Of a stretch of 64,000 nt of DNA, positions 21,001 through 24,000 are shown piece after piece. The stretch comes from Escherichia coli (GTDB lineage: Bacteria; Pseudomonadota; Gammaproteobacteria; Enterobacterales; Enterobacteriaceae), in the NCBI RefSeq assembly GCF_045037415.1, contig NZ_CP173438.1. One strand, 5' to 3'. Made by a program: the position numbers. The stretch's first letter is position 1. Each line of letters begins with the position of its first letter.

Positions 21001-24000
21001 TCATCGACTAACAGTTTATTCTGGAGGTCTTCATCCTCCTCCCAGTCAAGAGATGACAGGAAGGATTTAAACTCTCTGTTACCAGGAAATTTCAAAGTTA
21101 AATCTTTCATACTGCCTCCTTGATTTGCCTGTCATTTAATTCTTTAAACCAGACTCTGAAATTTCTGATGTGTCCAAACAAATGACGCGTTCCTGCTGCG
21201 GTCTGCCCACCAAACCGGTACGATGTTGCTGTAACTCCAAATATTTTACCATTAAGGTTTGTTGTATAATTACCATTGCATATTGCATTTACTGATAAAT
21301 CAGATTTAGCTCTCACACCCACAATGAACCTTTCTCCATCTGAGGCAATTTGTGGCTGAACCATTCCTACGTTGGCGCTTATCTTTCCTGTTGCAACAAA
21401 CCCCAGCGATAAATAATTATCATCAATACTGTGCCCTCCAACATCAAATATCCTTGGCGCAACATTGGGCGGTGTACTCCAGTTCCTGCTTACTTCGCAC
21501 AATACCGTAAAAGGCCGTGTTGACAGGTTATTCTGCGATGGGATAGTAACTACATCACTTGCGCGTGTTGTTGGCATTGTAGTTACAATAAATGACGATG
21601 CCGTATTGCCCAGTTCAATTTGCGGCGTCGTCATGGTTAATGTTGAGTCATCATAGAATGTCTCATTACTTATTTTATTTGTCATATAAAAAGCACAGTT
21701 AACGGTATCAATGTCCGTATTAGCTGTATAAGTGGCCTCATAGTAGGTCCACTCGCCCTGTTGTTCAGCTTTGGCTGTTATAAGGGATGTATTACCGCTT
21801 ACTGTTGCGATCCGGGTATCCAGATCAAGATAAGAGTCAGCAGAGAAGGTATCTGTTCCACCAATAATAACTGAAACTCTTAACCTGCATCGTGCTTTAG
21901 CGCCTTTAACCCGGCACGAAAAAGTGAAACATTCACCACTTGCCAGCGGGAATCTGTCTGCTGCAACCACACCATGCACAGTATAGCCACCTGTTGTTCC
22001 CACTATACTTTCCGTGGGTGTCACCGTGGCATAATTGAACCCCTGTTTATCAGTGCCAAATGTTTTATTCAGTGCGGAATGAACAGTCCATGAGTCTGGT
22101 TTATTTGAGTTCCTCAGATAATTTGTCCTCTGTCCTTCAATCAATAAGCCATCGCGCTCAAATCGCGGTTCGTCAACTTCAGCAAGCTTGAGTTGGCCGG
22201 ACTTATTAATATACGTTGCTGTTGAAGCACGTTTAAACTTAACAATCTTGTCGCCTGGCATTGTTATTTCATCGTCACCAATAACTATCTTTTTATAAGA
22301 TGGCGAAAAACCCGTAATCATATCCAGTGAATCGTTAAACGGTATCCACACATCAGGCAGCGGCGGCACTATATTCGCACAGGGCTCTGCAGTCACTTCC
22401 GCTGCGGCTTCTGCGCGGTCTGCCGCCTTTTCAGCTCGTGTCGCTGCCGACAGAGCCTCATCCTTTTTCTGCCCGGCCTTTGTTGCGTCTGCTGCGGCCT
22501 CCCGCGCTTTTGTGGTGGCGACTCCGGCATTTTCAGCGGCTGACTCTGCATTACGGCGGGAAGCCTCTTCACTGTCTGCGGAGGCTTCTTCTGACGCACG
22601 GGCATTTGTCTCTGAACGTTCTGCCGCTGTTGCTGCGTTTTGTGCGGCTGTTTTTGAAGAAGCTGCCGCTTTCGCGCTGTTACCTGCATTCGTCTCTGAT
22701 GTTTTCGCCGCGTTCCTGGACGATGCCGCTGCTGTTTCTGATTTCTTTGCTGCCGCTGCGCTCTGAGAGGCGGCTTCAGCGTTGCGTGCCGCCTCTTCCA
22801 CCATCTTTTCAAAACGATACAGTGCCTCCGGACAAACATCATCTTCTGTTGCAGCGCCCAGAAAATCATTCAATGTCCCCGGCTTAGAATCCTCATACAC
22901 GGTGATGGTCCCGGCATGTGAAGGCGGAAAACCTTCAACCAGCAGGGCGACGCTGTACTGGCCATACTCAACATCCATGCTGTAACGTCCGGCTTCATCC
23001 GGATTTTCTGAGGCCACCGTGTTCACCACAACTGTGGTGCTGTTACGTTTTGCTTTGAGCTGAATGGTGCAGTTCTGTATCGGTTTTCCTGCACCGTCTT
23101 TCAGCACACCTGAAATCTGTACTGCCATATTCACTCCACAAATAAAAAAGGCACCATTTCTGGTGCCCGAATTTGGGTTTTAAAATTCAACTGATACTGA
23201 TGCCGGCTGTTGATTTCTTCATCACGACAACAAGAAGGTCGCTGATACTGGTCGTTGGCGTCCAGTTATTTGCACCATATGAAGAAACATTGAAAGTCAG
23301 GGTGACATGGCCGTGTCCGGCAGGCATATCAATGACTGATGAAAATACCCTGCTGACATCCGTCGCGGGTTGCTGAAAGATTTCCTGTCCGTTCTTCAGC
23401 ACCTGCAGCTTACAGGTTGAATACCAGTATGACTGTTGGTTGTTGCTGTTGAAGTTTTCATGCTTACCACCGCGAAACAGAACGGGGGGGACGACTATCT
23501 GACGGTCAAAAGCCTGGTCATCGTACACAGTGACCGTTATTGTACCGCTGGCATAACTGCCATTTCTCGGAAAGGCTTTTCCCACCGTTTTGACAATATC
23601 ACCTTCAATCTGGTTAGCTGACAGTTTTCCCAGAATCCGACAGTTCTGGTTAATCGTGACATTATTGAGCGTCCCGGAGTTCGCATTCACGTTACCGCTG
23701 ATATCCGCATTTCTCGCAGAAAGTCGACCATCAGGTGTCAGTGAAAACGTTGGGGGATTGCCACCGCTGGTAATGGTGGGAGCCGTCAGATATTTCAGGA
23801 ACACTTCGTTCATGAATATCTGATCGCCCTGCCCAACAAACATCGGCTTTGTATTGCCATTCGCAGGATTAATCATCGCAATCCTGTCCGCCGCCAGCAG
23901 CACCTGACTCTGCATACCGTCAGGGGTATTCTCAATACCGGCACCAATACCCGCGATATAAAGGCGTCCGTCCTGCATCTGCTGCAGCTTCACAGCCCAC

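Follow-up and report, generated by a model that had tools for sequence, protein, structure and literature searches.

Among the side tail fibres (Stf) of lambdoid phages, that of Ur-lambda, encoded by orf-401 and orf-314, is a well-described structure. Twelve copies (four trimers) of its N-terminal domain, StfN, build a dodecameric collar at the gpV/gpM junction of the tail, while residues 102–393 form a proximal trimeric coiled coil, as seen by cryo-electron microscopy (PMC12617516). The targets of these fibres are OmpC and the unmodified O16 antigen (PMC12617516, PMC11990801), and the fibres speed up adsorption rather than determine plating (PMC12617516). The Stf of Gifsy-1 binds Gal II in the core of lipopolysaccharide (LPS) (PMC12312913), and the lateral fibres of T5-like phages bind O-antigen (PMC8594841). 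It is well established that temperate and virulent coliphages exchange stf sequences (PMC3945230). The present analysis concerns a stretch of 64,000 nucleotides of an Escherichia coli chromosome (contig NZ_CP173438.1 of RefSeq assembly GCF_045037415.1), hereafter called the window. It contains an open reading frame (ORF) that is best read as the stf gene of a phage-21-like lambdoid prophage, coding for a fibre with a lambda-type collar, a coiled-coil shaft and a lectin-like, mosaic head that would bind a surface glycan. We give this reading a probability of about 75%.

The gene lies on the minus strand at 21107..23128 and codes for 673 amino acids followed by a stop codon. A mechanical ORF call placed it at 21107..23134 (minus strand, 675 amino acids) with a GTG start, and the sequence-only reading of this DNA had reported the same interval. 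The single intact ORF was confirmed, but its likely start was moved to the ATG at 23128, since the GTG at 23134 falls within the Shine-Dalgarno sequence GGAG. The protein then begins MAVQISG, a start common to the Stf proteins of lambda and phage 21, and its 673 residues correspond to the length of most database copies. Residue numbers below are counted from this ATG; the domain-profile searches were made with the 675-residue form (an offset of 2). The gene begins 59 bp downstream of gpJ (23187..26669, minus strand), in which seven J-specific Pfam domains were recognized. It therefore occupies the place of lambda stf, right behind J, the central fibre gene of a lambda-like tail module, although no lom gene is present between J and stf here, unlike in lambda.

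The side tail fibre of phage 21 (OL657228, CPT_21_22, 686 amino acids) proved to be collinear with the fibre over its full length (residues 1–673 versus 1–686, 63.6% identity). The stf gene of phage 21 also follows gpJ, and behind it come the same two ORFs of 92 and 97 amino acids and the sitABCD genes. The two fibres are about 80% identical in a region termed here the neck and in the C-terminal tail. They differ in a 900-bp internal cassette (residues 337–637, window 21219–22118), which shows no DNA similarity and only 30–34% protein identity. At the DNA level, phage 21 matched with 93% identity up to residue ∼337 and with 95% identity from residue ∼637 on, and did not match over the 900 bp in between. 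Judged from these alignments, the two proteins bear different head alleles on the same frame. The fibre also matched PHROG 1419 (‘tail protein’, E 2e-294), and it shows the collar, short shaft, neck, double jelly-roll and 92-residue companion of a phage 21-type fibre. Full-length collinearity with lambda Stf, which a domain-wise alignment to lambda and other prophage fibres might have revealed, was not found; phage 21, collinear throughout, is the better reference.

Comparison with further fibres resolved the mosaic. Residues 1–249 were 97–99% identical to phage 21 and ∼20–38% identical to virulent phages, while residues 250–336 were 74–84% identical in all the fibres compared. Over residues 337–520 the nearest relative was the virulent, T1-like phage KarlJaspers (Drexlerviridae; 85%), with 60% identity to Es2 and 30% to phage 21. 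Over residues 521–637 it was Es2, a virulent T5-like phage (83%), the rest showing ∼35%. Finally, residues 638–673 were again similar to all the fibres compared (69–86%). A DNA match to KarlJaspers (74%) ran across residues 252–541. At the level of sequence, module exchange is directly visible in these sharp shifts of the nearest relative along stf. Module swapping had been proposed earlier from the DNA itself, with a mosaic of three parts: a lambda-type N-terminus, a middle rich in Ala, Ser and Glu, and a different receptor-binding end. The proposal is supported, since resemblance to lambda is confined to the collar and the beginning of the shaft and does not extend to the receptor-binding end, which is unrelated. 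The mosaic is finer-grained than proposed, the alignments dividing it into at least five segments, not three. Compared with lambda, sequence has been replaced from stf codon ∼117 as far as a remnant of the tail fibre assembly gene tfa at 20450–20507, beyond the end of stf.

The N-terminal collar domain (residues 1–91; 22856..23128, minus strand), which would dock the fibre on the tail, was identified by its homology to lambda StfN (PDB 9e7m/9mgh) and by the Pfam profile PF08400 (‘prophage tail fibre N-terminal’). This profile covered residues 1–131 with an E-value of 2.8e-67 and a score of 225.3 bits, against a gathering cut-off of 26.6. A PDB sequence search found 83 of the first 94 residues (88%) to be identical to the solved N-terminus of lambda Stf (9e7m/9mgh, E 1.5e-49); apart from this StfN fragment, the search returned only chance-level matches to the shaft. 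In BLASTP comparisons, lambda orf-401 was 73% identical to residues 1–158, and the DNA of lambda was 84.5% identical over window 23145–22779 (residues 1–117), the match ending at residue ∼117. The claim that the first ∼100 residues match lambda Stf was therefore correct as to the match and a little short as to its extent, which reaches residue 117 in DNA and 158 in protein. By homology with Ur-lambda, a dodecameric collar would be expected here too.

The collar is followed by a shaft rich in Ala, Ser and Glu (residues 102–248; 22385..22825, minus strand). Its 147 residues, bounded by Pro100 and Pro249, correspond to exactly 21 heptads with no break. Ala, Ser and Glu together account for 53–67% of residues 121–240, and bulky hydrophobic residues are almost absent. 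Hydrophobicity along the shaft showed a period of 3.5 residues, with a power of 81, where shuffled sequences had a 99th percentile of 61. Tandem Repeats Finder detected no DNA repeats in stf, and the periodicity thus exists at the protein level only. Residues 134–240 aligned to residues 239–345 of lambda Stf (53% identity, E 2e-5, BLASTP). As this part of lambda Stf lies within its proximal coiled coil, the shaft is of the same kind as that of lambda and about half as long (147 versus 292 residues). Residues 102–248 are accordingly read, from their sequence pattern, as a putative trimeric α-helical coiled coil. The middle segment had been described as being of low complexity; its Ala/Ser/Glu richness was confirmed, but it is neither a foreign nor an odd module, being a regular coiled coil, as in lambda. 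Ur-lambda Stf thus has in common with the fibre the collar, the linker, the Ala/Ser/Glu-rich heptad shaft and the position relative to J.

A further prediction, that the low-complexity segment creates long spurious ORFs in other frames, was borne out. Three such ORFs, together spanning 22393..22887 on both strands, lie within the shaft segment: 22393–22869 (minus strand, 158 amino acids), 22438–22887 (plus strand, 149 amino acids) and 22512–22766 (plus strand, 84 amino acids). When the order of the shaft codons was shuffled, the three longest open stretches averaged 140, 111 and 80 codons (observed values were 153, 148 and 128), while equal-sized pieces from the rest of stf gave open stretches of only 27–75 codons. 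None of the alternative-frame ORFs had a Pfam match. Since shuffling reproduces the open stretches and Pfam matches are lacking, these ORFs are considered compositional by-products of the codon content of the shaft. The lambda record itself annotates an ORF of this kind, orf206b, opposite the lambda shaft.

Between the shaft and the head lies the conserved neck, or junction (residues 249–336; 22121..22384, minus strand), characterized by the motif PLPDVWIPFNDSL...RASTATYINKSG...EPRFE..GLLIEGQRTN. The neck was 74–84% identical across lambdoid, T1-like and T5-like fibres, and bears most of the residues that are invariant in the family. These residues (P263, G273, R322, G327, E331, T335, N336, Q503, E505, S512, R522 and N534) are located in the neck and at the inter-domain junction, a distribution that, in the alignments, fits a conserved frame carrying variable domains. 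The head itself would consist of two jelly rolls. The first, variable and lectin-like (residues 337–520; 21569..22120, minus strand; boundary approximate), includes a match to NF048003, the NCBIfam ‘phage head spike fiber domain’, which covered residues 329–523 with 65.7 bits against a cut-off of 36 (model positions 1–181 of 182). The second, similar to LamG and concanavalin A-like domains (residues 521–673; 21110..21568, minus strand; boundary also approximate), has a variable part (residues 521–637) and a conserved tail (residues 638–673). The domain boundaries and the locations of the invariant residues were taken from secondary structure and alignments.

The top 120 homologues of the C-terminal 424 residues were all E. 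coli entries with 100% identity; the alignment of the head was made with 60 diverse homologues from a search of a representative library. The AlphaFold2 model of residues 250–673 built on this 60-sequence alignment had a predicted local distance difference test value (pLDDT) of 92.5 and a predicted template modelling score (pTM) of 0.88, and was all-β save for a terminal helix. As modelled, the head is a β-sandwich jelly roll with significant structural similarity to known concanavalin A-like lectins/glucanases. A Foldseek search with this model ranked baseplate proteins of phages Pa193 and E217 first, with matches over ∼400 columns, which implies that the head contains two domains. LamG, pentraxin, neurexin and clostridial neurotoxin binding domains were also among the structural neighbours, and Pfam gave a weak match to CBM_4_9. 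The head spike fibre of RcGTA, a gene transfer agent of the alphaproteobacterium Rhodobacter, is the namesake of NF048003 and binds capsular polysaccharide (PMC10218006). Its similarity to the fibre is limited to the NF048003 domain, and it is a capsid spike, as opposed to the enterobacterial phage tail fibre studied here.

The C-terminal domain had been described as unlike that of lambda, and indeed residues 250–673 showed no similarity to the lambda receptor-binding end. BLASTP comparison of lambda orf-314, the C-terminal part of Stf, with the fibre found no significant match beyond residue ∼250, the best being a chance-level alignment of 62 residues (E 1.2). The lambda hinge, the distal gp37-like coiled coil, the His-rich receptor-binding tip and the Tfa chaperone have no counterpart here. 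The head model is a jelly roll, not a fibrous structure, and has no gp37-like tip, so the protein is not a lambda Stf in the strict sense. Pfam and NCBIfam scans of the fibre found no Peptidase_S74 domain, no β-helix and no catalytic family. For Peptidase_S74, the C-terminal autocleaving chaperone (pfam13884), no Pfam match was obtained at E ≤ 0.01, and the C-terminus appears in the model as a LamG-like strand and helix. The branched fibres LtfA and LtfB of phage DT57C were considered as an analogue and set aside, because both end in Peptidase_S74 chaperone domains, which are missing here.

The fold and the domain family make a glycan-binding head the best-supported function in the model, but several points weigh against the proposed identity of the gene product. 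The glycan as ligand is deduced from that fold and family, the structure of the head is a prediction for a monomer, and enzymes as well as protein-binding domains (LamG, pentraxin, the Hc domain of botulinum neurotoxin) can have concanavalin A-like folds too. Further, the RefSeq annotation of the corresponding locus of strain JJ1887 (NZ_CP014316.1), produced with the Prokaryotic Genome Annotation Pipeline, contains two ‘incomplete’ pseudogene fragments, AX202_RS31410 and AX202_RS31415, covering residues 1–121 and 333–673 and leaving the shaft unannotated.

As an alternative, the head would recognize an outer-membrane protein rather than a glycan, its jelly rolls serving as protein-binding modules. 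Some of the structural neighbours named above (LamG, pentraxin, neurexin and clostridial neurotoxin domains) do bind proteins, and lambda's own Stf binds OmpC (PMC12617516). Set beside the match to a domain family whose namesake binds a capsular polysaccharide, this alternative is considered unlikely. A head acting as an enzyme, namely a jelly-roll glycan hydrolase or lyase that cuts O-antigen or capsule in the manner of a tailspike, would agree with the occurrence of such folds in glucanases; no catalytic family was recognized in the scans, and we regard this option as more improbable still.

The pseudogene annotation suggests yet another alternative: that stf is a decayed remnant from which no functional fibre is made. 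Besides the two fragments in JJ1887, the interruption of the region by the insertion sequence (IS) ISEc52 in some genomes of sequence type 131 (ST131) would speak for it. However, JJ1887 and the window have identical DNA here, and the ORF runs uninterrupted through 673 codons to its only stop, at the end; it is also fully collinear with phage 21 Stf, copies 99.7% identical to it are found in isolated phages, and its sequence is 100% conserved in hundreds of genomes. The gap in the annotation coincides with the compositionally biased shaft, and the split into two pseudogenes is attributed to this biased coiled-coil segment. The pseudogene reading was therefore rejected, and the chance that the gene is a remnant is judged to be very slight. 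The isolated phages referred to are plaque-forming (1H12, Lambda_4B5, Lambda_ev087, PhiR47_2 and others), and their fibres were 99.4–99.7% identical to the one described here. That series of Lambdavirus isolates was obtained by cultivation from E. coli strains and viromes of the infant gut, and sitABCD is present in 70% of them (PMC6969025).

If the gene product is the side tail fibre proposed, with a glycan-binding head, its mode of action might be as follows. Twelve copies (four trimers) would ring the tail at the junction of tube and tip by means of the collar, as in the Ur-lambda structure. The 21-heptad shaft would span ∼22 nm (assuming a rise of 1.5 Å per residue) and hold the heads ∼20 nm away from the tail. 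As the fold and the domain family suggest, the heads would attach reversibly to a glycan of the cell surface (O-antigen, LPS core or capsule), and this tether may raise the chance of gpJ meeting its outer-membrane protein receptor. Such a mode of action resembles the three documented cases given above, those of Ur-lambda, Gifsy-1 and the T5-like phages. Homologous recombination at the conserved junctions would swap head segments and so redirect this initial step of adsorption; the effect of the head on host range, which the sequence-only reading had also put forward, is inferred. In addition, the 92-residue protein encoded behind stf probably aids the fibre, either as a chaperone or as an accessory subunit, although this is the weakest step of the explanation.

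The ORF for the 92-residue protein (phrog_1361; 20832..21110, minus strand) starts in an ATGA overlap with the stop codon of stf, and an AAGGAGG Shine-Dalgarno sequence lies inside the 3′-end of stf, so that the two genes are translationally coupled. Homologues go together with this type of head in 143 phage records, and in all of the 40 records listed the ORF abuts or overlaps a tail fibre gene wherever the record has annotation at that place. The hosts of these homologues are lambdoid, Drexlerviridae, T5-like, Dhillonvirus and JenP1-like phages, that is, at least four siphovirus groups. The ORF was 93% identical to its phage 21 copy despite the different head cassettes of the two fibres, and it therefore tracks the conserved frame, not the specificity. 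The fold of the protein was confidently predicted, but no solved structure is similar to it; that it is a chaperone or accessory subunit of the fibre is a guess.

The lateral fibres of KarlJaspers (Drexlerviridae) and of the T5-like phages Es2 and IrisVonRoten share the neck, the double jelly-roll head and the overlapping downstream 92-residue ORF with the fibre described here. They differ in their N-terminal attachment regions, which are unrelated (∼20% identity), and in the sequence and length of their shafts. The 92-residue ORF is succeeded in the T5-like phages by another large gene, for a tail fibre of ∼575–581 amino acids (IrisVonRoten 4789–6513; Es2 4075–5820). In KarlJaspers (3770–4447), the gene in that position codes for a 225-residue ‘putative lateral tail fiber chaperone’. 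The presence of a second gene in these virulent relatives hints at a possible role of the 92-residue protein in connecting or aiding another component of the fibre.

A bolder interpretation is that the neck, the two jelly rolls and the coupled 92-residue ORF form a portable receptor-binding cassette, exchanged with sub-domain resolution by temperate lambdoid phages and virulent phages of the T1-like and T5-like kinds, the 92-residue protein representing a novel type of fibre-specific assembly factor or distal subunit. We hold this only tentatively, and think it rather doubtful. Were it true, each jelly roll would be a unit of specificity exchangeable by itself, and one fibre could read two different surface glycans.

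Downstream of the 92-residue ORF lies that of a 97-residue predicted membrane protein (phrog_1443; 20526..20819, minus strand), which the phage 21 record describes as a putative membrane protein having two transmembrane segments. The protein was 100% identical in phage 21 and in many temperate coliphages; its occurrences are mostly in temperate phages, with distant partial matches in phages of Aeromonas and Halomonas. The tfa remnant that follows is a stretch of 58 bp (20450..20507, minus strand) with 93% identity to lambda tfa codons ∼155–174 (E 3.7e-19), located between the 97-residue ORF and the stop codon of sitD, beside the sitABCD cargo. The similarity identifies it as what is left of a lambda-type tail fibre assembly gene, and as the far boundary of the stretch that is replaced with respect to lambda. 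No downstream tfa chaperone gene is present apart from this 58-bp fragment, and the 92- and 97-residue ORFs are unrelated to tfa. On the other side of stf, a terminator-like hairpin (GGGCACCAGAAATGGTGCCT followed by a T-run; 23149..23168, minus strand) lies between the stop codon of gpJ and the start of stf; phage 21 carries an annotated terminator at the equivalent site. This implies that the expression of stf depends on antiterminated late transcription or on read-through.

The prophage that carries the fibre is lambdoid and phage-21-like, and is integrated at icd in an ST131-type E. coli chromosome. It extends from ∼14.9 kb past the right end of the window and, as far as the window shows, is complete, with head, tail, lysis, replication and recombination modules. 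The sitABCD iron/manganese transporter genes (16985–20434) are prophage cargo placed exactly as in phage 21, and further cargo includes Iss (bor-like) and an inverse autotransporter. The gene for this intimin/invasin-like autotransporter (1302 amino acids; 51744–55652) is adjoined by an IS66-family transposase ORF (49182–50795; 537 amino acids, E 9e-98). In JJ1887 the autotransporter has 1421 amino acids, and over that interval the window exceeds JJ1887 by 2,183 bp, which suggests that the insertion of an IS truncated the adhesin gene.

The 2.9-kb fibre region (window 20400–23300) was 100% identical in many ST131 genomes, JJ1887 among them, and at least 80% of it was held by 512 of the 5,426 complete E. 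coli genomes. In some ST131 genomes (e.g. NZ_CP018983.1), the equivalent of window 20400–23300 falls into two parts over a span of 4,154 bp, and the annotation beneath the match includes an IS3-like ISEc52 transposase. In those strains the fibre locus is IS-disrupted.

As a textbook case of tail-fibre mosaicism, the fibre is ordinary and already catalogued, and introduces no new principle. What its analysis adds is a mosaic shared with virulent phages at the sub-domain level, a shaft recognized as a regular coiled coil, and a widespread 92-residue companion ORF. The split annotation of an intact stf will mislead predictions of prophage intactness and of host range. For the construction of chimeric lambda-type delivery particles, two sites naturally offer themselves for splicing, the conserved PLPDVWIPFNDSL junction and the C-terminal tail, likewise conserved; functional Stf chimeras have already been engineered (PMC11338833). 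The speed with which a siphovirus reaches its host depends on its side fibres, and on smooth strains they sometimes decide whether it gets there at all; the fibre described here is that of a prophage from the pandemic ST131 lineage, with sitABCD and iss among its genes.

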